A DNA stretch of 36,355 bases, from positions 1 to 36,355 of the forward strand of contig JBGAGQ010000063.1 of NCBI GenBank assembly GCA_044226625.1. The letters are read 5' to 3'. Source of the DNA: Thermoanaerobaculia bacterium (GTDB taxonomy: Bacteria; Acidobacteriota; Thermoanaerobaculia; Multivoradales; UBA5704). The translations under genes were made by a program, and so were the position numbers. Shown piece after piece: positions 11,472 to 22,881 of the stretch (its first letter is position 1; every line of letters begins with the position of its first letter). The notes beneath the pieces were generated by a model that was given only the letters and a program-made list of their open reading frames with translations, had not been told where the DNA came from and did no database searches.

Positions 11472-14105
11472 CTACGGCCCGCCGAGCTCCGCGAGGCGGG
11501 CTTTGGCCCGCACGACCCGGGGATCGGTGGCCGGAAGCGCGGCCGCCAGATCGGCGCAGCTCGTCCGCAACAGCGGCAGCGCCTCGTCCCGACGCCCGAG
11601 CGCCAGGAGGGCGGCCCCCATTTCGTTCTGCACTTCGGCGATCCGATAGTGGTGCGGGGCGAAGACGGCGACCCGGGTCGGCAGCGACCGGTCGAGGAGG
11701 ACGAGGGCCTCTTGGGCGTCCCCGCGGGCGAGCAGAAGTCGGGCGAGGGCGACCATCGGGCGCGAGGTGTTCAGGTGGGCCGGGCCGTAGGACTTCTCGA
11801 TCATCGCAAACGACCGCCGCAGCTCCGCCTCGGCCTCCGCTTCACGCCCCATGCGTCGGTGGAGATCGCCCAGGTTCGAGAGGGTGAGCCCGGTGAGGGG
11901 ATGCTCCGGGCCGAGAATCTTTCGGCGCATCGCGAGCGTCTCGAGGTAGCGGGCCTCGGCCTCTTCGTAGCGTCCTTCGTACATCAGATTGGTCGCGATG
12001 CTGTCGAGGGTGAACGCGATGTCCGGATGGGCTTCCCCGAGCCGGCGCCGCTGCCCGGCCAGCGCCTCCTGGAACGCGGCGTCGGCCTCGGTGAGCTTGC
12101 CCCGCTCTCCGAGCATCACGGCGTATCCCTGGAGGAGCTCGCAGATCAGCGGGTGATCGGGAGCGAAATTGCGCCGGGCGATGCGGAGGGCGAAAGCAAA
12201 GTAGCCGAGCGCCGCGCCCGACTCCCCTTGGCGGCCGCGCACCGTGGCGAGGTAGGAGAGGCTCGATGCGACGAGGGGATCGTTCGGTCCGAGCTTCTTC
12301 AGCCGGATCGCGAGGGCCTCGCGTTGGGCGGCGTAGGCCCCCTTCAGATTTCCCTGCTGGAAGCGGGCTCGGCCGAGCATCTCGAGAGTCGCCGCGCGGT
12401 CCAGGTCGGCGACCGCGCCGAGCTTCTCTTGTTGGATCTGGCAGGAGGTGAGGATCTGCTCGGCGCGGGCGTGCTGACCCCGGACGAAGAGGACGTAGCC
12501 GAGCTGATATTGGTAGATCAACCGTTCGGCGTCCAGAGCCCCGGATCGCGCGCCGAGAGAGGCCGCGCGCACGATCAGGGGGCCCGCTCGATCGAAAGCC
12601 CCGAGGTTCAAATAGACGTCGCCGATCACGCTCGCGAGATGCGCTTCGACCTGGGGATCTCCTTCCACCTGTTGCAGGAGATGACGGGCGCCGAGATCGA
12701 GCACCTCCTCGACCGTCGGCTTCGAGCTGGCCGCACGCGCGTTTGGATCGGCGCCGCGGAACAGGTCGACCAGGAGCGACAGGGCGCGCTCCGAGCGATC
12801 GTGCTCGCGCGCGATCCGTCGCGCCTGGGCCGACGCGAAGAATCCATAAGCCAAGCTCGAAAGGAAGAGGAGCCCCGCGAGACCCGCGGCGAGCGGGTTG
12901 CGCCGGAGGAATTTCTTCGCCCGGTAGCCCCAACCGTCCGGGCGCGCTTCGACCGGAAGATGCTCGAGGTAGCGCCGGAGGTCCTCGCCGAGCCGCTCGA
13001 CCGAGGGATATCGCCGCTCCGGCTCGTGGCGCAATGCCTTCTGGAGAATGTTGTCGAGATCTCCGGACAGCTGGCGGGCGAGCCCTCGCGGCGTCGTCGC
13101 GCGGCGGCGGGCGATCTCCTCCATCGAGACCGGCATGCCGCGCTCGGTCGGCTCGATACGCCGCGCCCTTCGGTTCGAGGTGTCCGCCTCTCCGCGGGCG
13201 ACGGTGTTGGGCCAGGTGGGCGAGGTGCGGGGGAGCGCGCCGGTGAGCAGTCGAAACAGCACCACGCCGAGCGAATAGATGTCGGTCGCTGTGGTGACGG
13301 GCTCGCCGCGCAGCTGCTCGGGGCTCGCGTAGCTCGGGGTGAGAGCGGGGGAGATCGTCCGTCCGCCCTCCTCGTCGAGCTCGTTGGGCGACAGAACCTT
13401 GGCGATGCCGAAGTCGAGCAGTTTCGGCGCTCCATCCGCTCCGACCAAAATGTTGCTCGGTTTCAGGTCGCGATGGACGACGAGGTTCTTGTGCGCGTAG
13501 GCGACCGCCGCGCAGACCGTTCGAAACAGCCGAATGCGCTCGACGATCGACAGCCTTCGCTCGTCGCAGTGGCGGTCGATCGGCAGACCGTCGACCCGCT
13601 CGAGGACGAAGTAGGGGACGCCGTCCTCGGTCGTGCCGCCGTCGAGCAGGCGGGCGATGTTCGGATGCTCGAGCCGCGCGAGGATCTGCCGCTCCTGCAC
13701 CAGTCGCTCGGCGAGTCGCGGATCGAAGAGCCCCGGGTAGACCAGCTTGACCGCGACCTGGTGCTCGTAGGCTTGATCGGCCCGTTCGGCAAGGTAGACC
13801 ACGCTCATGCCGCCGCGGCCGATCTCCCGCACCAGGATGTAGTTGCCGACGCGCCTCCCGGCCCATCCGTCGGCGGGCCCCTTCACCGCGCCGCCGCCGG
13901 CGGGCCCCGCCGGGTTCACGGAATCGGGCCGGCGCTCCAGGAACGAGCCGGCTTCGCCGTGCGCCGCGAGCAGCGAGCCGACTTCTCTTTCGAGGTCCGA
14001 GTCGTCGCGGCAGGCCTCGGCGAGCCAGGCGGCGCGTTCGCCCTCGGGCCGTTCGAGAGCCGCGTCCAGCAGATCGAGAACCCGGCGCCAGCGTTCAGCG
14101 TCCAG
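11472..14105 (-). CDS. Membrane Ser/Thr protein kinase with C-terminal TPR repeats (ECF-associated)
   Basis: GRGGMSVVY, VAVK, HRDLKPSN, DFG and YASPEQ, followed by a TM helix and TPR-like repeats (LGxxHP). The typical N-terminal helix (DAERWRRVLDLLDAALE) extends the frame to a CTG at 14103-14105 with GGAGG 6 nt upstream. Confidence 0.9.
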   Translation of the reverse strand: MDAERWRRVLDLLDAALERPEGERAAWLAEACRDDSDLEREVGSLLAAHGEAGSFLERRPDSVNPAGPAGGGAVKGPADGWAGRRVGNYILVREIGRGGMSVVYLAERADQAYEHQVAVKLVYPGLFDPRLAERLVQERQILARLEHPNIARLLDGGTTEDGVPYFVLERVDGLPIDRHCDERRLSIVERIRLFRTVCAAVAYAHKNLVVHRDLKPSNILVGADGAPKLLDFGIAKVLSPNELDEEGGRTISPALTPSYASPEQLRGEPVTTATDIYSLGVVLFRLLTGALPRTSPTWPNTVARGEADTSNRRARRIEPTERGMPVSMEEIARRRATTPRGLARQLSGDLDNILQKALRHEPERRYPSVERLGEDLRRYLEHLPVEARPDGWGYRAKKFLRRNPLAAGLAGLLFLSSLAYGFFASAQARRIAREHDRSERALSLLVDLFRGADPNARAASSKPTVEEVLDLGARHLLQQVEGDPQVEAHLASVIGDVYLNLGAFDRAGPLIVRAASLGARSGALDAERLIYQYQLGYVLFVRGQHARAEQILTSCQIQQEKLGAVADLDRAATLEMLGRARFQQGNLKGAYAAQREALAIRLKKLGPNDPLVASSLSYLATVRGRQGESGAALGYFAFALRIARRNFAPDHPLICELLQGYAVMLGERGKLTEADAAFQEALAGQRRRLGEAHPDIAFTLDSIATNLMYEGRYEEAEARYLETLAMRRKILGPEHPLTGLTLSNLGDLHRRMGREAEAEAELRRSFAMIEKSYGPAHLNTSRPMVALARLLLARGDAQEALVLLDRSLPTRVAVFAPHHYRIAEVQNEMGAALLALGRRDEALPLLRTSCADLAAALPATDPRVVRAKARLAELGGP

Positions 14106-14700
14106 GGGGGGCCTCCGCGGCGCCGAGCGGCTTGAGCTCGCGGTAGAGCCAGGCTTTCGCGGCCCGGAAACGGCGTACCACGGTCGCCGAGGAGAGCTCG
14201 AGCGCCTGGGCCGTCTCGTCGAGCGTCAGGCCGCCGAAGGTGTGGAGCTCGATCACCGAGATCGCTTCCGGGTCGAAGGCGGCCAAGCGCTCGAGCGCGG
14301 CGTCCAGCGCGATCAGGTCAATCTCGCGCGCGGGGGCGGCAAGGCCCGCTTCTTCGAGCAGCACCCGTACGCGACCGCCGCCGCGCTTGTCGCGCGCGAG
14401 GCTCCGCGCGTGGTCGACCAGGACCCGCCGCATCATCCTCCCGGCCATCGCGCAGAAATGGCTACGGTTCTGCCAGTCGATCGCCCGCAGCTCGGAGAGG
14501 CGCAGGTACGCCTCGTGGACCAGAGCGGTCGGTTCGAGCGTGTGCTCGTCCCGCTCGCCGCGAAGCTGCGCCGCGGCCAGACGCCGCAGCTCGTCATATA
14601 AAGCGGGAACCCAAGAATCCGCCGCCGCGAGATCTCCCGCGCTCCAGGCATGCAGGAGCTCGGTGACCGACCGCTCGCCGGGTGCCGCATCGGATGCCAT
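14095..14700 (-). CDS. ECF RNA polymerase sigma factor (kinase-associated, TIGR02999-like)
   Basis: VTELLHAWSAGD, YDELRRLAA, HTLEPTALVHEAYLRL, WQNRSHF and GLTLDETAQAL; overlaps the kinase start. Confidence 0.92.
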   Translation of the reverse strand: MASDAAPGERSVTELLHAWSAGDLAAADSWVPALYDELRRLAAAQLRGERDEHTLEPTALVHEAYLRLSELRAIDWQNRSHFCAMAGRMMRRVLVDHARSLARDKRGGGRVRVLLEEAGLAAPAREIDLIALDAALERLAAFDPEAISVIELHTFGGLTLDETAQALELSSATVVRRFRAAKAWLYRELKPLGAAEAPPGR

Positions 14701-14851
14701 ACCCTGAGTATACGAAGCGGTCGGGGCGGGGGTTCCCCCATGGGACCGGGAAACTTGGAATGTGGTTGATCGACGGGATGGGGGTACGGCGCCTATTCGA
14801 CTAGGCGGCGAGCGGGGCTGGCAATTGGCTCGCCGGGAGGACGACCGTACG

Positions 14852-15253
14852 ATGTGTCGAGGCGACTTTTCTTCTCGAATTCAACAACTCGTGGTCGAGG
14901 AAGGTGGCGGCACGGAACGAACCAACATCCCGGACCGCCTGCCGCCGAGCTCGATGGAACGGATGCTCTTCGCCGTGTCGCTCGGCTCCGAAGAGCAGGG
15001 CTTGCTCGCGAGCTTCATCGACGACGGCCATTGGTGTCTGCTCACGACGAACCGGCTGATCTGGCGAAACGCCCCAACCCTCGGCAGCCTCCGTTGGTCG
15101 GAGATCCAGGATCTCGAAGGTGGCCCGGAGTTCACCGTCGGCGGTGGCTGGGGCGACCGCATGCCGCTCCCCGTCGAGCCGGGCCGCGGAAGAGCCCTGC
15201 TCGAAAGCGCCCTTCATGAGCTCCGGCCGGTGGAGGCGGCGAAGGCGGCTTGA
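14852..15253 (+). CDS. Hypothetical protein
   Basis: GGAGG RBS before ATG 14852. WCLLTTNRLIW...LRWSEI is reminiscent of bacterial PH-like folds (weak). Confidence 0.55.
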   Translation: MCRGDFSSRIQQLVVEEGGGTERTNIPDRLPPSSMERMLFAVSLGSEEQGLLASFIDDGHWCLLTTNRLIWRNAPTLGSLRWSEIQDLEGGPEFTVGGGWGDRMPLPVEPGRGRALLESALHELRPVEAAKAA

Positions 15254-15557
15254 ATCCCTTAGCTCAACTGTAGAGCGTGCTCCGGGGAGAAGCGCAAATC
15301 TCCGGAGCCTGGTTCCTCGCGCAAAGGTAGAGCGGGGGACCTCCGCGAGTAACGCCCGAGCGCGGGCGTCGGGGGGCATGACTCGATTCGGGAGAAGCCC
15401 TCCCGTACCGCCGCGGCCTGTGGTAAGAAATCGCCCAGCTTTCAGTACCCTGAGGAACGAACGGGCTCGGCCCCGACGAGGCCGAGCCAGCCCCGCTCGT
15501 CGAGCATTCGACGTCGGGCAAATCAGCTCGGCGTGTGTCGTTTGTAGGGGAGATGAC

Positions 15558-18035
15558 ATGAGCACTCGAAACGGTCGTTCGAGGGCGGGCGGTGCGGTGA
15601 GTTGGATGTTGGGGGCGTTCGTGTTGGCAGCTGTAATCCTCTTCGCGCCGGCTCATGCGGTACGGGCGCAGGAGACCCCGCCTGCCGAGCCGAAGGCGCA
15701 GGCCGCCGAGGAGCCTCAACCCGAGGTGGTGAGCGAGGAGATCACGGTCACGGCGCGTAAGCGCGAGGAGACGATCGAGGACGTGCCGTTCTCGGTCGCC
15801 GCGCCGAGCGAGCAGGATCTACGCTCCCGTGGCGCCGAGAGCATCGAGGGCGTGGCGGCGAACGTCGCCGGCTTTTCCGTCCAGAACCTCGGCCCAGGCC
15901 AGAGCCAGGTGGCGATGCGCGGCGTTTCGGCCGGTCAGATCGTCCGCGACCAGCCGGGGGTCAAGGAGCAGGTGGGCATCTACCTCGACGAATCGGTGAT
16001 TTCGCTTTCGTTGTTCACGCCCGACGTCGACCTGTTCGACGTGGGCCGGGTCGAGGTGCTTCGTGGACCGCAAGGGACCCTATTCGGCTCCGGGTCGGAG
16101 TCGGGAACCGTGCGATACATCACCAACCCGCCGAAGCTTGGCGTCACGGAATCCTTCGGCGAGTTCTCGGCCAACGGCACCTCGGGCGGCGCCGTGGGCG
16201 GCAGCACGAAGGTGGCGGTGAACGCCCCGGTGGGCGAGAAGTCGGCGCTTCGCGTCGCGGCCTATTACAGCAAGGTCGGCGGCTACGTCGACGCGGTGCA
16301 GCCCGGCCTGCGGGTGAAAGACGACGTGAACGGCTCCGATCGTTCCGGCGCTCGCCTTGCCTGGCGTACCCAACCGAACGAAAACCTTACGATCACGCCG
16401 CGCGTCGTCTATCAGGAGCTGAACGCCGACGGCTGGAACCGTGCCGACGCCTACAACATCCTGGGCAACCCGTTCACCACGACGCGTCCGGCGGTCCGGC
16501 TCGGCGAGCGCGAGCAGTTCACCCAGATCGAGGAGCCGACGAAGGACAAGTTCTTGCTCGCCGACCTGAACGTGGAGGTCAAGCTCGGCGCTGCGACGCT
16601 CACCTCGATCTCGTCCTACACCGATCGCGACATCGACGTCGTGCGCGACGCGACGGCGCTCACCGCGAGCATCACGGGCGGCAGTATCGGTCTGCCGCAG
16701 TCGGTTTATTCGCTGGATGCGCCGCTCGACGACAAGACGAAGGTGAAGGTGCTCACGCAGGAGCTGCGCCTGACGGGAAGCCGCGACCGGCTGAACTGGG
16801 TAGGCGGTCTCTTCTATAGCCACGTCGATCGCGACTACGACCAGAGCCTGCTGGTCGCCGAGTTCGAGAGCCTTTCGGGCATCCCCACGCGCGGCCTTCG
16901 CGCGCCGAAGGACGTGCTGTTCTTCTCGGATCTTTCCTACACGCTCAAGCAGGCGGCGCTGTTCGGTGAGGCCACCTGGTCGGTCAACCCGCGCTTCGAC
17001 CTCACGGGCGGCCTTCGGTATTACGACTTCAAAGAGGACCGCACGCAGGTCTTCGACGGGATCTTCGGCAACGACAACAACGGCACCTCCCTGGTATCCA
17101 CCGCGGGCGACACCTCGGCGAACGGTTTTGCGCCGCGGCTGATTGGCAGCTACAAGCTCAGCGATCGGACGACCTTGAACGCCCAGGTGGCGAAGGGCTT
17201 CCGGCTCGGCGGCATCAACGACCCGCTGAACGTGCCGCTCTGCACGCCGCAGGACCTGCGGACTTTCGGCGGTCACGAGGGCTGGAAGGACGAGACCCTC
17301 TGGAACTATGAGATCGGCGCCAAGACCCGCCTGCTCGTCGGACGCGGCTCGTTCAACGTCGCGGCGTTCTACGCCGACATCACCGATCTGCAAGCGACGG
17401 TCACCGCCGGCTCGTGCTCGTCGCGCGTGATCTTCAACGTTCCGAAGGCGCGGAGCCAGGGGCTCGAGATGGAGCTGTCGGCGGCGCCGAATTCGAACTT
17501 CGAGTTCTCGCTCTCGGCGAGCTACGCCGATTCCGAGCTGCGCTCGACGCTCACCTCGACCGACGCGGCGGGGCGCGTCACGGTGGTCTCCGGCATCAAG
17601 AGCGGCAACCGGCTGCCGACGGTGCCGAAGCTCCAGGTCGCCGCGGCAGCGACGTATCAACGTCAGGTGGGGACGAGCTCGCTCGGCTACGTGACGGCGA
17701 CTTACCAACACACCGGCTCGCGCTTCACCCAGATCGGCGATCAGGATCCGTCGTTTGGCTTGGTGAACCTGCTCTCCTTCGCGCCGAACACGATCGGCGG
17801 TCCGCTCACGGCTAGCACCTTCACCTTCAATCCGGAGCTGCCGGCCTACGACATCTTCAACCTCCGCGCGGGAGTCGCCTTCGGCAAATGGGACGTGGCG
17901 CTGTTCGTCAACAATCTGACCGACGAACGGGCTTTGCTCGCCCTCGACCAGGAGCGGGGCACCCGCGCGCGCGTGGGCTTCCTGATCAACCAACCGCGGA
18001 CCTTCGGACTGAATACGCGGGTCCAGTTCAAGTAG
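15558..18035 (+). CDS. TonB-dependent outer-membrane receptor
   Basis: Signal peptide, TonB box EEITVTARKREE, plug VEVLRGPQGTLFG, NYEIGAKT, LFVNNLTDE, and C-terminal PRTFGLNTRVQFK. Confidence 0.95.
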   Translation: MSTRNGRSRAGGAVSWMLGAFVLAAVILFAPAHAVRAQETPPAEPKAQAAEEPQPEVVSEEITVTARKREETIEDVPFSVAAPSEQDLRSRGAESIEGVAANVAGFSVQNLGPGQSQVAMRGVSAGQIVRDQPGVKEQVGIYLDESVISLSLFTPDVDLFDVGRVEVLRGPQGTLFGSGSESGTVRYITNPPKLGVTESFGEFSANGTSGGAVGGSTKVAVNAPVGEKSALRVAAYYSKVGGYVDAVQPGLRVKDDVNGSDRSGARLAWRTQPNENLTITPRVVYQELNADGWNRADAYNILGNPFTTTRPAVRLGEREQFTQIEEPTKDKFLLADLNVEVKLGAATLTSISSYTDRDIDVVRDATALTASITGGSIGLPQSVYSLDAPLDDKTKVKVLTQELRLTGSRDRLNWVGGLFYSHVDRDYDQSLLVAEFESLSGIPTRGLRAPKDVLFFSDLSYTLKQAALFGEATWSVNPRFDLTGGLRYYDFKEDRTQVFDGIFGNDNNGTSLVSTAGDTSANGFAPRLIGSYKLSDRTTLNAQVAKGFRLGGINDPLNVPLCTPQDLRTFGGHEGWKDETLWNYEIGAKTRLLVGRGSFNVAAFYADITDLQATVTAGSCSSRVIFNVPKARSQGLEMELSAAPNSNFEFSLSASYADSELRSTLTSTDAAGRVTVVSGIKSGNRLPTVPKLQVAAAATYQRQVGTSSLGYVTATYQHTGSRFTQIGDQDPSFGLVNLLSFAPNTIGGPLTASTFTFNPELPAYDIFNLRAGVAFGKWDVALFVNNLTDERALLALDQERGTRARVGFLINQPRTFGLNTRVQFK

Positions 18036-18094: not shown

Positions 18095-18787
18095 TCAATA
18101 GAGACAACTCGACGGTTTGCAGACGCGCGGCCCGGCGCCGTCCTTCGCGCACCAGCCGCCTTTCCGGCCCTGGCACTGCTCGTCGCTCGCGCAGGTGTCG
18201 AGCGGAGTCTGACAGGCGTAGGCGACGGAAAAGGCGCAGCCCGGTTGCGACGCATACTCGCCACAGACGCCGCCGTTCTTGCAGTCGGCATCGGTGCGGC
18301 AGGCGGCCTTCACACAGCGCCCTGCCGGTTTTCCGCATTCGCAGATCTCGCCGGCCGCGCAATCGGAATCCGTGCCGCAGCCATAGGTGCAGCTGAACCG
18401 GTCGGACGGCAGCGGGATGATGCAAGAACCGTAAGGCTTTTCGCGGCAATCCAGATCCGATTTGCAACTGCCTGAAAAATCGTGGCCTGGGGGTGATTCG
18501 AACTCCGACGCCGGCCGCGGCGCATAGGGACAGGCGACCACTTCGGTCCGATGGCGGAGGCCGTTGGCGCAGACGGCGAAACCCGTCGACTTTCCGCCGA
18601 CCTCGAAAGGCTTCGAGTCGGTGCATCGGATCGCCGCGGGGAGGAGGAGGCCGGGCGGCACCCGGTCGGACGCGCCGAAGGCCGCGCTCGCGACAGCGCC
18701 CAGGAACCCGACGAAGGCGATCGACGCCACCGATGCTCCTGAGAGGAGTCTTGCGACGGCTACGCGGCGTAAGCGGGACCCACTCAT
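18095..18787 (-). CDS. Secreted cysteine-rich repeat protein
   Basis: Signal-peptide-like N-terminus, 22 Cys and four C-x-[ST]-D-x-[DQ]-C units; GGAGG RBS. Confidence 0.75.
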   Translation of the reverse strand: MSGSRLRRVAVARLLSGASVASIAFVGFLGAVASAAFGASDRVPPGLLLPAAIRCTDSKPFEVGGKSTGFAVCANGLRHRTEVVACPYAPRPASEFESPPGHDFSGSCKSDLDCREKPYGSCIIPLPSDRFSCTYGCGTDSDCAAGEICECGKPAGRCVKAACRTDADCKNGGVCGEYASQPGCAFSVAYACQTPLDTCASDEQCQGRKGGWCAKDGAGPRVCKPSSCLY

Positions 18788-18897: not shown

Positions 18898-19914
18898 ATG
18901 AAGATCCTGGTCACCGGGGGAACCGGATTCCTGGGCCGGCGGACGGTCGCCGAGCTGGTTGCGCGCGGTCACAAGGTGCGGCTACTGGTCCGCTCGGGCT
19001 CGTCCCGAGATCGCTTCCCCGCCGGGGTCGAGTTCGCGACCGGCGACGTCACCGATCGGGGAAGCCTGGTCGCCGCCGCGTCCGGAGGCGGGGGATGCGA
19101 CGCGATCCTCCACGCCGCGGCGCTGGTGAAGATCCTCGCGCCGGCTGCGGATTTCGATCGGATCAACGTCGGTGGCCTGAACAACGTGCTCGCCGCGGCG
19201 CGGGCGACTGGGATCGAGCGGATCGTCTACGTTTCGAGCTTTATCGCCCTCGGCCCCACCGAAAATGGCCCCGGCGGCCAGCTCGACGAGTCGGCGAAAA
19301 CCGGGGCGGTCAGCGGCGAGCGGGTCTGGATCAACGACTACGAGCGGACGAAGACCCTCGCCGACCGGCGCGCCCGCGCGGCGATCGCCGAAGGGGTACC
19401 GCTGTCGGTCGTCTATCCCGGAGTGATCTACGGGCCGGGCGAGCTCACCGAGGGCAATATCGTCGTCCGCCACGTTCTCGATCTGATCGGAAAAAAGCTT
19501 CCTGCGCTCCTTGGCAAGCCGGAGCGGCGTTGGAGCTACGTCTTGGTCGACGACGTGGCGCGCGGCACGGCGGAGGTCCTGGAGCGGGAGCCGGGGTCGC
19601 GTTACGTGCTCGGCGGCGACAACGTCTCGCTCGCCGAGTTCTACGCCTTGGTCGAAGAGCTCACCGGCGTCCCGGTGCCGAAACGCCGGTTTCCCGACGG
19701 AGTCGCGAAGGCCGCTGGCGCGCTCGCCAAGCTCTGGGCGCGGGCGACCGGAACGGTGCCCGCGTTGACGCCCGATCTGGTCGAGATCTACCGCCACGAT
19801 TGGGCCTACAACTCGGCGTCCGCGACCCGCGATTTCGGCTATCGGCCGACCTCGTTGCGGGATGGGCTCGGGCGCACGCTCGCCTGGCTCAAGGAGATCG
19901 GCAAATGGGCCTGA
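18898..19914 (+). CDS. NAD-dependent epimerase/dehydratase-type SDR, farnesol dehydrogenase (FLDH)/DFR-like
   Basis: TGGTGFLG, HAAALV, NVGGLNNVL, SSFIALG, YERTK catalytic motif and YPGVIYGPGELTEGN. Confidence 0.85.
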   Translation: MKILVTGGTGFLGRRTVAELVARGHKVRLLVRSGSSRDRFPAGVEFATGDVTDRGSLVAAASGGGGCDAILHAAALVKILAPAADFDRINVGGLNNVLAAARATGIERIVYVSSFIALGPTENGPGGQLDESAKTGAVSGERVWINDYERTKTLADRRARAAIAEGVPLSVVYPGVIYGPGELTEGNIVVRHVLDLIGKKLPALLGKPERRWSYVLVDDVARGTAEVLEREPGSRYVLGGDNVSLAEFYALVEELTGVPVPKRRFPDGVAKAAGALAKLWARATGTVPALTPDLVEIYRHDWAYNSASATRDFGYRPTSLRDGLGRTLAWLKEIGKWA

Positions 19915-21263
19915 GGCGCCTGCCACCGGGCGAGCTGCCGCGCAAGGTCGTGCACATCGGCAGCGGCCTGTTCGCGCTCGCGCTCCGCTTCCTGGGACCT
20001 CTCGGTTCGGCCGCCATGGCGGTGTTTGCGATCCTGTTCAACTTCCTGCTGCTGCCGCGTCTCGGCGGCAAGAACTTGCTGCGCGAGGGAGAGCGCGAAC
20101 GGCAACGTTCGATCGGCATCCTTCTCTATCCGGTCTCCGTCTTCCTTTTGATCGTCGTCTTCTGGCGCCATCTGGAAGTCGCGGCGGCCGGCTGGGGATT
20201 GCTCGCTTTCGGCGACGGGATGGCGTCGGTGGTGGGTCTCGCGCTCGGCGGCACGCGCCTCCCCTGGAACCCGAAGAAGAGCTGGGCGGGAACGATCGCC
20301 TTCGTGCTGTTCGGCGGCGCTGCGGCGACCGCTTTGGTCCTCTGGACCGCCCCGGGCGCCTACACGATCGGCTTCGCCGCCGTCTGCTGCTTCGCCGCGG
20401 CTCTGCTCGCCGCCGTGCTCGAATCGCAGCCGCAGGGCCTCGACGACAATCTCGGAGTGCCGATGGTGGCGAGCCTGTTCCTGGTCGGCTTGCTTCTCAC
20501 CCAAGGTCGCTGGGAGGCGTTGCTCGCGGGGGGCTTCTGGGTCCGCGTCGCGATCGGCTTCGCGATCAACGCGGCGCTCGCCGCCGCGGCCTTTGCCGCG
20601 CGCTCGGTGGACCGCTCGGGGGTGATCGGCGGGACGCTCCTGGGCACGGCGATTTACGCCTTCCTCGATTGGCGCGGCTTTCTGCTCCTGGTGGCGTTTT
20701 TCGTCATCGGCACCGCTTGCACCAAGCTCGGCTACCAGCGGAAAGCCGCCGAGAAGCTCGCCCAAGAGGCGGGAGGGCGGCGCGGCGCGAGGCACGCGTT
20801 CGCCAACGCGGGCGTCGCCGCCGGATGCGCGCTGCTCGCCGCGGCCACGCCCCATCCGGTCCTTTATGGGCTCGCCTTCGCCGGCGCGTTCGCGACCGCC
20901 GCTTCCGACACCGCGGGGAGCGAGATCGGCCAGCTGCTCGGCCGCCGGACCTTCAAGCTCACTACGCTCCGTCCGGTGCCGCGGGGTACCGAGGGTGCCG
21001 TGTCGTTCGAGGGGACGCTCGCGGGGGTGATCGCCTCGCTCGTCATCGGCGGGCTCGGCGCCTGGGTCGGTCTCTATCCGGCCCCGGGGATCGCCGTGGT
21101 GGTGGTCGCGGCGTTCGTCGGAACGACGTTCGAAAGCCTGGTCGGGGGAGCGCTCGAGCGAAGCGCCCTGCTCGACAACGAAGCGCTCAATTTCCTCAAC
21201 ACCCTGGTCGGAGCGCTGGTCGCGGCGTCTGCCGCGTTGGTCGGCCTGCTCGGCGCGAGCTAA
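19905..21263 (+). CDS. Fusion protein: CTP-dependent phytol/dolichol-kinase domain + DUF92 (TMEM19/VTE6-like) domain
   Basis: N-half has RKVVH, GDGMASVVG, LPWNPKKSWAGT and LESQPQGLDDNL. C-half has GGRRG, ASDTAGSEIG, VPRGTEGAVSFEGTLAG, ESLVG and NEALNFLNT. ATG 19905 has an AAGGAG RBS and overlaps the SDR end. Confidence 0.85.
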   Translation: MGLRRLPPGELPRKVVHIGSGLFALALRFLGPLGSAAMAVFAILFNFLLLPRLGGKNLLREGERERQRSIGILLYPVSVFLLIVVFWRHLEVAAAGWGLLAFGDGMASVVGLALGGTRLPWNPKKSWAGTIAFVLFGGAAATALVLWTAPGAYTIGFAAVCCFAAALLAAVLESQPQGLDDNLGVPMVASLFLVGLLLTQGRWEALLAGGFWVRVAIGFAINAALAAAAFAARSVDRSGVIGGTLLGTAIYAFLDWRGFLLLVAFFVIGTACTKLGYQRKAAEKLAQEAGGRRGARHAFANAGVAAGCALLAAATPHPVLYGLAFAGAFATAASDTAGSEIGQLLGRRTFKLTTLRPVPRGTEGAVSFEGTLAGVIASLVIGGLGAWVGLYPAPGIAVVVVAAFVGTTFESLVGGALERSALLDNEALNFLNTLVGALVAASAALVGLLGAS

Positions 21264-21305
21264 GCGATCGGGCGCCGCCTACGGGTCCCATTCGAGGCAC
21301 GAACC

Positions 21306-22292
21306 TTGAGCAAACTGAACCTCTACCGGCAGCTCGCGCGGCCGTTCACCCTGCTGCCGCCGCTGCTCGGCATCGTCTCCGGCGCGATCTGCGCGTTCGG
21401 CTCGATCCACAACCCGGATCCGAACCGGGAGGTGACGGCATCGGTGATCCTGACGATCGCGCTCGGCTCGCTTTGCGCGAGTCTGATGAACGCGGCGTCG
21501 AACGCAATCAACCAGATCTACGACCTGGAGATCGACCGGCTGAACAAGCCGGATCGGCCGCTGGTGACCGGGGCGCTCACGATTCCGGAGGCGTGGAAGT
21601 TCACCTGGGTGCTCTACGTGCTCGCGCTGCTACCGACCTGGCTGGTCGTTCCGTACCCGTACGTCACCTGGGCGGAGAAATTCCAGGCGCCGGCCTCCGC
21701 GCACGTGGTGTTCTTCATCTATCTGCTGGGCCTCGCCTTCACGTTCGTCTACTCGGCGCCGTCGCTCGGGCGGACGAAGGTGCGCGGCATGGCGGCGAAC
21801 TGGACGATGGCGATTCCGCGCGGCTTCCTGCTCAAGGCCGCCGGCTGGGGGATGGTGGCACCGGTAGCCTCGACCGAGCCTTGGTTCATCGGCCTCGCGT
21901 TCTTCCTGTTCCTGCTCTTCGCCGCCTCGACGAAGGATTTCGCCGACATCGACGGCGACCGCGCGGGCGGCTGCCGCACGTTGCCGATCCTCTACGGGGT
22001 AAAGAAGGCGGCCTGGATGATCAGCCCGTCGTTCGTGCTTCCGTGGATCCTTTTGCCGCTCGGTGCCCACCTTCGCGACCCGCAGCAGCCCGAGCATCCG
22101 ATCCTCACCGGCAACCCGAACCTGCTGGTGGCGCTCGGCGCGATCTTGATGACGTGGGGCGCGTATACGGTCTATCTCCTGGTGCGCGATCCCGACTCGC
22201 TCACCGCGACCGAGAACCATCCCTCGTGGAAGCACATGTATCTGATGATGATGTTCGCCCAGGTCGGATTCGCCTTGGCGTATATTCTCTGA
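21306..22292 (+). CDS. UbiA-family prenyltransferase (homogentisate-phytyltransferase/DGGGP-synthase-like)
   Basis: RPFT, Asp-rich motifs NQIYDLEIDRLNKPDRPL and KDFADIDGDR, YSAP, multiple TM helices; TTG start. Confidence 0.9.
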   Translation: MSKLNLYRQLARPFTLLPPLLGIVSGAICAFGSIHNPDPNREVTASVILTIALGSLCASLMNAASNAINQIYDLEIDRLNKPDRPLVTGALTIPEAWKFTWVLYVLALLPTWLVVPYPYVTWAEKFQAPASAHVVFFIYLLGLAFTFVYSAPSLGRTKVRGMAANWTMAIPRGFLLKAAGWGMVAPVASTEPWFIGLAFFLFLLFAASTKDFADIDGDRAGGCRTLPILYGVKKAAWMISPSFVLPWILLPLGAHLRDPQQPEHPILTGNPNLLVALGAILMTWGAYTVYLLVRDPDSLTATENHPSWKHMYLMMMFAQVGFALAYIL

Positions 22293-22326
22293 GGATTCGT
22301 TTCCCGAGGCGGAGACCGCGCGACCG

Positions 22327-22881
22327 ATGACCGAGATTCACTACGATCACGAATTCGACGAGCACGCCGATGAGCGCGAGACGGCGTCGGAGCGGGCTCT
22401 GTCGGGCGAGACCGAGATCCCCGCGCCGAAGCTGTTCGGTTTCTACGACCGGCTGCGCCGGCGCATCGTCCAGGCGGTCGAGCGGCGCGGCAACAAGCTG
22501 TCGGCCGACGCGGTTCGCGCGCTCCTCCTGGTGCCGGACGTCTTCATGCTGCTGGTCCGCCTCTCGCTCGACAAAGAGGTTCCGGGCAAGACGCGGGCGC
22601 TGATCGGCGGGGCGCTCGCCTATTTCCTCCTGCCGATCGACCTCCTCCCCGAGGCGATCCTGGGCGGCGTCGGATTCATGGACGACCTGATCCTCGCCGT
22701 CTCGGTCCTCTCCCAGGCGTTCGGCGGCGAGCTGGAGCCGTATGCCCGGCGCCACTGGAGCGGCTCGGAGGACCTCCACAAGGTCTTGCGCGACCTTTCG
22801 AACACGGCGCATTCGCTGCTGGGTGACAAGCTCTACCAGCGGCTCGAACGACTGCTCGGCCGGCGCGGCGTCCGGATGTAG
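22327..22881 (+). CDS. YkvA/DUF1232-family membrane protein
   Basis: ALAYFLLPIDLLPEAILGGVGFMDD; GGAG RBS. Confidence 0.85.
   Translation: MTEIHYDHEFDEHADERETASERALSGETEIPAPKLFGFYDRLRRRIVQAVERRGNKLSADAVRALLLVPDVFMLLVRLSLDKEVPGKTRALIGGALAYFLLPIDLLPEAILGGVGFMDDLILAVSVLSQAFGGELEPYARRHWSGSEDLHKVLRDLSNTAHSLLGDKLYQRLERLLGRRGVRM

Follow-up and report, generated by a model that had tools for sequence, protein, structure and literature searches.

In plants and cyanobacteria, VTE5, FOLK and VTE6 carry out a two-step phosphorylation of prenols, in which a Sec59-like and a DUF92 protein feed UbiA-family transferases. As far as the available text of one paper goes, prenol-salvage genes have been demonstrated in no organisms other than plants, cyanobacteria and Plasmodium, and the pathway is called 'missing' elsewhere (PMC9782597). 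In archaea, COG1836 proteins with an N-terminal Sec59-like domain were described by Makarova, Galperin and Koonin in 2015; the accessible sections of that paper link each half to PF01148 and suggest that the proteins act at a kinase step of isoprenoid synthesis (PMC5898192). COG1836 was also listed under (predicted) phytol-phosphate metabolism by Gerdes et al., in the portion of their paper at hand (PMC3223725). PfPolK has been assayed as a cytidine triphosphate (CTP)-dependent farnesol/geranylgeraniol kinase, for which the available text gives a charged clamp (Arg29, Lys30 and His33) and a Glu hinge (PMC10849223). Here, we analysed a stretch of 36,355 nucleotides (nt; hereafter the window) that constitutes the entire contig C62 (JBGAGQ010000063.1) of a 6.6-Mb assembly (ca. 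68% G+C, 97.9% complete) of a Thermoanaerobaculia bacterium, a member of the Acidobacteriota. A cluster at 18898–22881 encodes a short-chain dehydrogenase/reductase (SDR), a protein that joins a Sec59-like and a DUF92 half (hereafter the fusion), a UbiA prenyltransferase and a small DUF1232 protein. We tentatively propose, at somewhat less than even confidence, that this cluster is a conserved acidobacterial module which would activate a free isoprenoid alcohol (ca. C15–C20) for a dedicated prenyltransferase.

The four genes at 18898–22881 are real, and all of them lie on the + strand. The SDR gene (18898–19914, ATG start, 338 amino acids) is overlapped at its stop by 10 nt of the fusion gene (19905–21263, ATG start, 452 amino acids), whose start is preceded by GGAG 9 nt upstream. 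The UbiA gene (21306–22292, TTG start, 328 amino acids) follows after a gap of 42 nt, and the DUF1232 gene (22327–22881, 184 amino acids) after a further 34 nt. The co-orientation, overlap and gaps described in the original prediction were thus confirmed by the gene coordinates, and every string that it had quoted was found in the translations, namely HAAALV, NVGGLNNVL, SSFIALGPT, YERTK, YPGVIYGPGELT, RHDWAY and LAWLKEIG in the SDR, and GDG, PWNPKKSWAG, ES..DDN, GRRG, SDTAGSEIG and VPRGTEGAVSFEGTLAG in the fusion. Database searches returned hundreds of homologues for each gene, and the arrangement recurs in many genomes. The direct observations are the family placement and intact catalytic motifs of the gene products and the co-occurrence and frequent adjacency of the genes.

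Linkage was evaluated in two sets. The locus set consisted of 77 loci fetched by alignment with the fusion, of which 36 carry the fusion by tblastn; flanks were annotated for 15 loci (79 of the 147 called open reading frames (ORFs), those nearest the match). The genome set was an even sample of 201 Acidobacteriota, including the unpublished genomes G152 and G024, which shift each count by no more than 2. Related genomes are not independent, and the counts describe the sample, with no statistical test. Among the 31 loci with enough flank, the SDR gene was adjacent to the fusion in 26 and the UbiA gene in 21, rising to 25 when UbiA genes within 5 kb were included. The fusion profile matched 98 of the 201 genomes (59 at full length, by a reading of the table), and a UbiA orthologue was found in 70. 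Both a kinase/DUF92 gene and UbiA occurred in 69 genomes, the former alone in 29, UbiA alone in 1 and neither in 102; when the lists were compared by hand, UbiA co-occurred with 54 of the 59 full-length fusions. The kinase/DUF92 and UbiA genes lay within 3 kb of each other in 43 of the 69 genomes holding both. The SDR gene was adjacent to the fusion in 36 of the 59 genomes, elsewhere in 6 (one of these matches, in G056, being an HpnA paralogue) and not found with the query used in 17. A Planctomycetota metagenome-assembled genome (MAG), L065, carries the string SDR-DUF92-UbiA, and among 33 DUF92 loci that are unfused and have sufficient flank, 7, mainly from Vicinamibacteria, have UbiA next door. 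The DUF1232 gene was downstream in 9 of the 27 fused loci with at least 2 kb of flank and is confined to close relatives; its listing as an operon member in the original prediction was weakened, and it is probably a loosely attached neighbour that plays no part in the pathway. When linkage is taken as the check, conservation was therefore partial, being frequent for the fusion with UbiA (43/69) and for the SDR with the fusion (36/59) and sparse for DUF1232 (9/27).

These counts bear on the explanation that no common pathway exists and that the genes are neighbours by descent, each with an unrelated housekeeping task. In its favour, many relatives lack the SDR or have an unlinked UbiA, DUF1232 is an occasional neighbour and the flanks vary by lineage. 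We nevertheless regard it as improbable, because co-occurrence in 69 of the 70 genomes with UbiA is hard to account for without a functional tie, even though the genomes are related, and because adjacency is kept between classes and in the Planctomycetota MAG. The short gaps and the 10-nt overlap in the window, together with three families that form a coherent chemical sequence, point the same way.

The fusion, which is single-copy in the genome, had been read as a VTE5-like domain joined to a VTE6-like domain, and this claim was supported by the DUF92 match, the alignments with CdsA, the automatic names of homologues and the PfPolK clamp pattern. Its C-terminal half (20565–21263; VTE6 family) matched Pfam DUF92 (PF01940, COG1836) with 187 bits against a gathering threshold of 27.5, over residues 221–437 and model positions 2–251 of 251. 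The score on TIGR00297, 186 bits, was close to but below the cut-off of 205.85, which lowers the claim of equivalence but not that of family membership. In 50 fusions (30–50% identity), R293, D335, T336, E340 and N429 of this half were invariant, as were R13, H17, G103, D104, G129, E173, D181 and N182 of the N-terminal half (19905–20564, residues 1–220; Sec59/VTE5/PolK-like), while K14 was conserved in at least 90%. When profiles were compared with hhalign, the N-terminal half aligned with the genome's own CdsA (E 7.7e-5, 104 columns, probability 62%) through the GD..A...G...G...KSWxG...ES core. The same motif columns were aligned between the DUF92 half and CdsA (E 1.2e-3) and between the two halves (E 4.2e-4). 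These alignments support a relationship of both halves via the CdsA catalytic core, which agrees with the HHpred results in the accessible sections of PMC5898192. Based on these features, we propose the DUF92 half as a candidate prenyl-phosphate kinase.

The N-terminal half contains the basic clamp R-K-x-x-H and the catalytic acidic residues of polyprenol kinases. R13-K14-x-x-H17 and E173 recall PfPolK, a likeness by motif pattern and not by alignment; PfPolK stands alone and made no diphosphate according to the available text (PMC10849223), unlike the kinase here, which is fused to DUF92. PF01148 was matched by 3 of 23 stand-alone or truncated homologues of this half (best E 2.5e-4), and such homologues carry the automatic names dolichol kinase or phytol kinase from the Joint Genome Institute (JGI). 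An Atlas search gave a lead at 0.92 to a cluster with PF01148 in 16% of its members. AlphaFold models had mean confidence values (pLDDT, predicted local distance difference test) of 90.7 for the N-terminal half and 94.3 for the whole fusion. With the whole model, Foldseek found no match in PDB at E <= 0.001, and the top match of a wide fold search reached Z 7.4, CarS and CdsA ranking 7 and 8 at Z 6.6. We propose that the N-terminal half is a candidate CTP-dependent prenol kinase.

The fused form was kept in 59 of the 201 sampled genomes, down to ca. 31% identity among cluster representatives. That fusions of this kind are already known in prokaryotes, as the original prediction had stated, is borne out by the archaeal cases in print (PMC5898192). 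Judged by their description in the accessible part of that paper, Sec59-like::arCOG02245 proteins such as Mbar_A3310 have the same two-domain architecture; their context is uppS, whereas here it is SDR and UbiA, often behind LptD and rml genes.

Several variants of the fusion were observed. In 13 genomes of family f28 (G019, G037, G053, G067, G080, G092, G104, G116, G128, G140, G151, G162 and G193), the fusion profile matched in two pieces (ca. 3–86 and ca. 87–392) within open frames of 505–580 amino acids, with an insert in the N-terminal half and a C-terminus that is shorter or altered; the UbiA orthologue was ca. 60–340 nt away in 12 of the 13 and was not found in G116. At G041:C4:1510336-1511671 the fusion is split by two TGA codons, for which a pseudogene, a sequencing error or recoding is possible. 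A Gemmatimonadetes MAG (L037:3211-7732) carries a fusion without SDR or UbiA, preceded by DsbA-like and AhpC-like genes and followed by genes for a methyltransferase and a VKOR-family protein. In a Myxococcales MAG (L046:6039-9407), a B12-binding radical SAM gene stands directly before a 495-amino-acid homologue of the fusion. The protein P0204, a candidate SDR::kinase fusion, was rejected because its ORF had been called too long (BLASTP against the SDR, E 5.3).

The SDR matched Pfam Epimerase with 102 bits. Among the NCBIfam models, HpnA scored 199 bits (end to end), SdmB 127, OleD 119 and thioester reductase 84, while the sugar models scored low (GalE 36 bits, dTDP-glucose dehydratase 29). 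The nearest solved chain was 3wj7 (Gox2253; 5e-38), and Gox2253 is termed an aldehyde reductase in the available part of a preprint (bioRxiv 10.64898/2026.10.06.757028). Homologues at 68–73% identity are called 'farnesol dehydrogenase' in the JGI automatic annotation. Since the best models are lipid enzymes, GalE is low, Gox2253 is termed an aldehyde reductase and the JGI names agree, the SDR may act on a lipid alcohol or aldehyde, and its description as an extended SDR resembling aldehyde/alcohol reductases was supported. The cofactor and catalytic motifs (TGGTGFLG for TGxxGxxG, the Ser and Y-E-R-T-K) were conserved in 26 orthologues, in which Arg32 after strand 2 was also invariant. An Arg at this position in SDRs points to NADP(H), and the enzyme is probably NADP(H)-dependent. 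Arabidopsis FLDH (At4g33360) is likewise an extended SDR and shares its name with the JGI annotation of the close homologues; FLDH is described, in what was available of its literature, as NAD+-dependent, whereas Arg32 of the cluster SDR suggests NADP(H). We propose that the SDR belongs to the branch of extended SDRs that includes HpnA, FLDH and aldehyde reductases and is a putative prenal/prenol oxidoreductase.

HpnA (TIGR03466) is the best curated model of the SDR, so that the identity of the SDR with HpnA and a link of the cluster to hopanoids were considered. Both were rejected. The score of 199 bits falls short of the cut-off of 367.65, no match to a hopene cyclase (SQHop_cyclase_C; squalene-hopene cyclase) was found in the 97.9%-complete genome, and true HpnA exists as a separate paralogue: proteins scoring 424–505 bits on the model occurred in 30 of the 201 genomes, always away from the fusion, as compared with 180–248 bits for the cluster SDRs, and the two coexist in G174, G009, G003 and G022. 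With GalE at 36 bits, the SDR thus forms a lineage apart from HpnA and from sugar epimerases, which had been the question raised by the original prediction. Among the proteins that bear the labels 'HpnA-like' or 'NAD-dependent epimerase' there is, accordingly, a separate lineage with ties to isoprenoid kinases. The genome has a second HpnA-like SDR on another contig (G000:C130:9455-10417; 180 bits, 35% identical to the cluster SDR). The SDR match contains an in-frame TGA in two complete genomes that belong to the same genus (G148:C1:1361100-1362026 and G088:C1:2109142-2110068); a pseudogene, a sequencing error or recoding is possible.

The UbiA protein matched PF01040 with 100 bits (threshold 34.2), and both Asp-rich motifs are present. 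Its best NCBIfam model was PRK12884, an archaeal-type prenyltransferase, at 96 bits, which is below the cut-off; none of the curated cut-offs was reached (ChlG 88 of 313 bits, DGGGPS 75 of 296, HPT 51 of 226), and a further DGGGPS model gave 64 bits. Among solved structures, chlorophyll a synthase 9sau (4e-18) and DGGGPS 6m31 (8.5e-15) were matched, and the motifs NQIYDLEID and KDFADIDGD aligned with the motifs of both. An Atlas search returned acidobacterial UbiA clusters only. These results place the protein in the vicinity of chlorophyll synthase and DGGGPS, within a subfamily centred on the Acidobacteriota. Its resemblance to ChlG/BchG and DGGGPS as nearest solved and curated relatives is set against scores far under their cut-offs, a different first motif, no GGGPS match in the genome and a host that is non-phototrophic by its observed gene content. 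The genome has five other UbiA genes (heme O synthase, MqnP-like, decaprenyl-phosphate phosphoribosyltransferase (DPPR synthase) and two unassigned), so that the cluster UbiA is an extra one. Because ChlG and DGGGPS are nearest, both Asp-rich motifs are kept and the UbiA orthologue of G005 directly follows a farnesyl-diphosphate (FPP)-synthase-type gene (276 bits, cut-off 275), the protein is a putative user of prenyl diphosphate, as had been predicted.

A relationship with DGGGPS might imply archaeal-type or other isoprenoid ether-lipid synthesis, in which UbiA would place a geranylgeranyl group on a glycerol-phosphate-based lipid, with the kinases feeding it. PRK12884 being the best model, the DGGGPS scores, the alignment of both motifs with 6m31 and two geranylgeranyl-reductase-like genes in the genome (130 and 120 bits, below the cut-off) are in keeping with this. 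However, no PcrB/GGGPS match was found in the 97.9%-complete genome, which weakens the link, the DGGGPS models are far under their cut-offs and chlorophyll synthase fits equally well or better. We consider ether-lipid synthesis highly improbable.

In the pathway that we infer, every activity, the length of the prenyl chain, the direction in which the SDR works and the use of the kinase product by UbiA are predictions. The SDR, as an NADP(H)-type enzyme, would interconvert prenal and prenol, and the N-terminal half of the fusion would phosphorylate the prenol with CTP. Like VTE6 of plants, the DUF92 half would then attach a further phosphate, and the ChlG/DGGGPS-like UbiA would use the diphosphate to prenylate a hydroxyl, a carboxyl or a ring carbon of an acceptor. 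Such a pathway would resemble plant and cyanobacterial salvage in its two phosphorylation steps. It would differ in that the kinases are one polypeptide, clustered with a UbiA that is neither HPT nor ChlG, in a host whose observed genes do not indicate phototrophy and for which no supply of phytol is evident. The original prediction had also put forward scavenging of environmental phytol or farnesol. This part is conjecture, and the genome contains four polyprenyl synthetases of its own; since the cell makes prenyl diphosphates itself, scavenging and the reuse of prenol that the cell has released are equally likely.

A number of results weigh against prenol activation. The N-terminal half (residues 1–220) gave nothing against Pfam at E 10 beyond a chance match, and its profile found no match among PDB sequences at E 10. 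When its model was compared with 48,161 chains, CarS 5guf ranked 3 (Z 7.0, root-mean-square deviation (rmsd) 4.2, 116 residues aligned) and CdsA 4q2e ranked 5 (Z 6.3, rmsd 6.4, 169 residues aligned); both lie below Z 8, and the modelled fold may be like that of the CTP-dependent intramembrane enzymes. The activity names from JGI are automatic annotation, which limits them as evidence of function. The first UbiA motif reads NQ..D...D in place of the ND..D...D of ChlG and DGGGPS. With four polyprenyl synthetases in the genome, kinases that feed a prenyltransferase are not obviously needed. As to linkage, 29 genomes have a kinase/DUF92 gene without the cluster UbiA, UbiA is on another contig than the kinase/DUF92 gene in 26 of the 69 genomes with both, and the 17 of 59 fusion genomes in which no SDR was found include relatives of the same order, from which the SDR appears dispensable. 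The 'complete operon' of the original prediction therefore stood as far as linkage kept far beyond this genome is concerned (43/69 and 36/59), and not as far as completeness is concerned (26/69 and 17/59).

The setting of the cluster in relatives also counts against it. A LptD homologue was upstream on the same strand in 30 of the 77 loci, and in 21 loci three or all four of rmlA, rmlD, a dehydratase-like and an epimerase-like gene were directly upstream. The order in L011 is LptD, RmlA, RmlD, 4,6-dehydratase-like, GalE-like, SDR, fusion, UbiA and DUF1232, with RmlA at 459 bits (cut-off 320) and RmlD at 287 (cut-off 224), and its GalE-like (epimerase-like) gene overlaps the SDR gene by 4 nt. 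In L023 and L028 an epimerase-like gene stands directly before the fusion. A PMT_2 gene for a GT-C glycosyltransferase (ArnT/PMT-like) lies between the fusion and UbiA in two loci (L024:8674-10974 and L026:1957-3531). The LptD-rml string before the SDR fits a role of the SDR in sugar-nucleotide metabolism. In L026 a hybrid histidine kinase gene is also found between the fusion and UbiA. The PMT_2 insertion occurs in one clade, and an NCBIfam name was not found for the gene. For UbiA genes away from the fusion, 12 regions were fetched and 9 annotated (53 of 81 ORFs, those nearest the match); L085, L092 and L095 were left out since the gene caller, which relies on the G+C content at third codon positions, fails at their G+C of 0.35–0.46. 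In G005 the orthologue that follows the FPP-synthase-type gene lies beside PagL and a GT2 gene, and in G143 it faces a SurA-like gene; three other relocated orthologues are near NYN and flavoprotein genes. This setting suggests an envelope-associated product.

These observations could be explained by a pathway for an envelope-glycan carrier, in which the Sec59-like half would be a polyprenol (undecaprenol- or dolichol-type) kinase supplying polyprenyl phosphate, the SDR a keto-sugar reductase or epimerase of the upstream dTDP-6-deoxyhexose route, and UbiA the enzyme building a polyprenyl-phosphate-linked sugar, a donor which GT-C enzymes would use on lipopolysaccharide (LPS) or proteins. Mycobacterial decaprenyl-phosphate phosphoribosyltransferase, for instance, makes a polyprenyl-phosphate-linked sugar. 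The LptD, rml-type and epimerase-like, PMT_2, PagL, GT2 and SurA-like neighbours are in line with this pathway, and the best NCBIfam name of the SDR is 'hopanoid-associated sugar epimerase'. The proteins themselves agree less well with it. UbiA scored 21 bits on the DPPR synthase model (cut-off 207), as against 96 and 88 on users of prenyl diphosphate, and the genome has a separate DPPR synthase on contig C5 (313 bits against a cut-off of 234). A carrier lipid needs a monophosphate, which would leave the conserved second kinase-like domain without a role. The SDR gave 36 (GalE) and 29 (dTDP-glucose dehydratase) bits, whereas the epimerase-like gene upstream gave 145 and 107. The SDR also accompanies the fusion at loci with no rml gene nearby (the window, L007, L033 and L065), and neither LptD nor rml-type genes are upstream in the window or in L007, its closest relative. 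In addition, synteny within one phylum may be mere inheritance. We therefore regard the glycan-carrier pathway as rather unlikely.

A version of prenol activation that accommodates the envelope setting may be considered. Here UbiA would make an undescribed prenylated envelope lipid or glycolipid, widespread in Acidobacteriota, in which an ether or ester bond would join a short isoprenoid chain to an acceptor of the outer membrane or one related to LPS. The fusion and SDR would be a dedicated loop for recovering the prenol set free when this product is turned over. The position of the genes behind LptD and dTDP-sugar genes, their PagL, SurA-like and GT-C neighbours in relatives and the retention of two prenol kinases by a cell with its own prenyl diphosphates would then be accounted for. 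We regard this specific version as quite unlikely.

The families, the fusion and the plant pathway were already known. In the literature search, which did not extend to the supplements of PMC5898192, no paper on a bacterial grouping of SDR, fused kinase and UbiA or on its LptD-rml setting was found; the apparent novelty is thus the conserved bacterial grouping and its place behind LptD and rml genes. If prenol activation is correct, the fused two-step kinase, present in roughly one third of the Acidobacteriota sampled, would amount to a compact bacterial form of prenol salvage, accompanied by a dedicated transferase and, in many cases, a reductase. In metabolic engineering the fusion might help to channel inexpensive prenols into isoprenoid pathways, and the acceptor may turn out to be a novel lipid in a soil phylum that is abundant but poorly cultured.

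The last gene of the cluster, which encodes the DUF1232 (YkvA-like) small membrane protein, matched its Pfam family with 46.5 bits and had no NCBIfam match. In the consensus scan of the stretch, no promoter-like sites were found, and terminator-like sites were at chance level. The flanks are unrelated to the cluster. Downstream are genes for a soluble lytic transglycosylase (SLT), a DUF2203 protein and thymidine kinase. Upstream is a divergent gene (18095–18787, − strand) for a Cys-rich, secreted protein of 230 amino acids with a signal-peptide-like start and no Pfam family. It is preceded by a TonB-dependent receptor gene (15120–18035), which comes after a pair of genes (11472–14880, − strand) for an extracytoplasmic function (ECF) sigma factor (PF07638) and a Ser/Thr protein kinase with a long tetratricopeptide repeat (TPR) tail.

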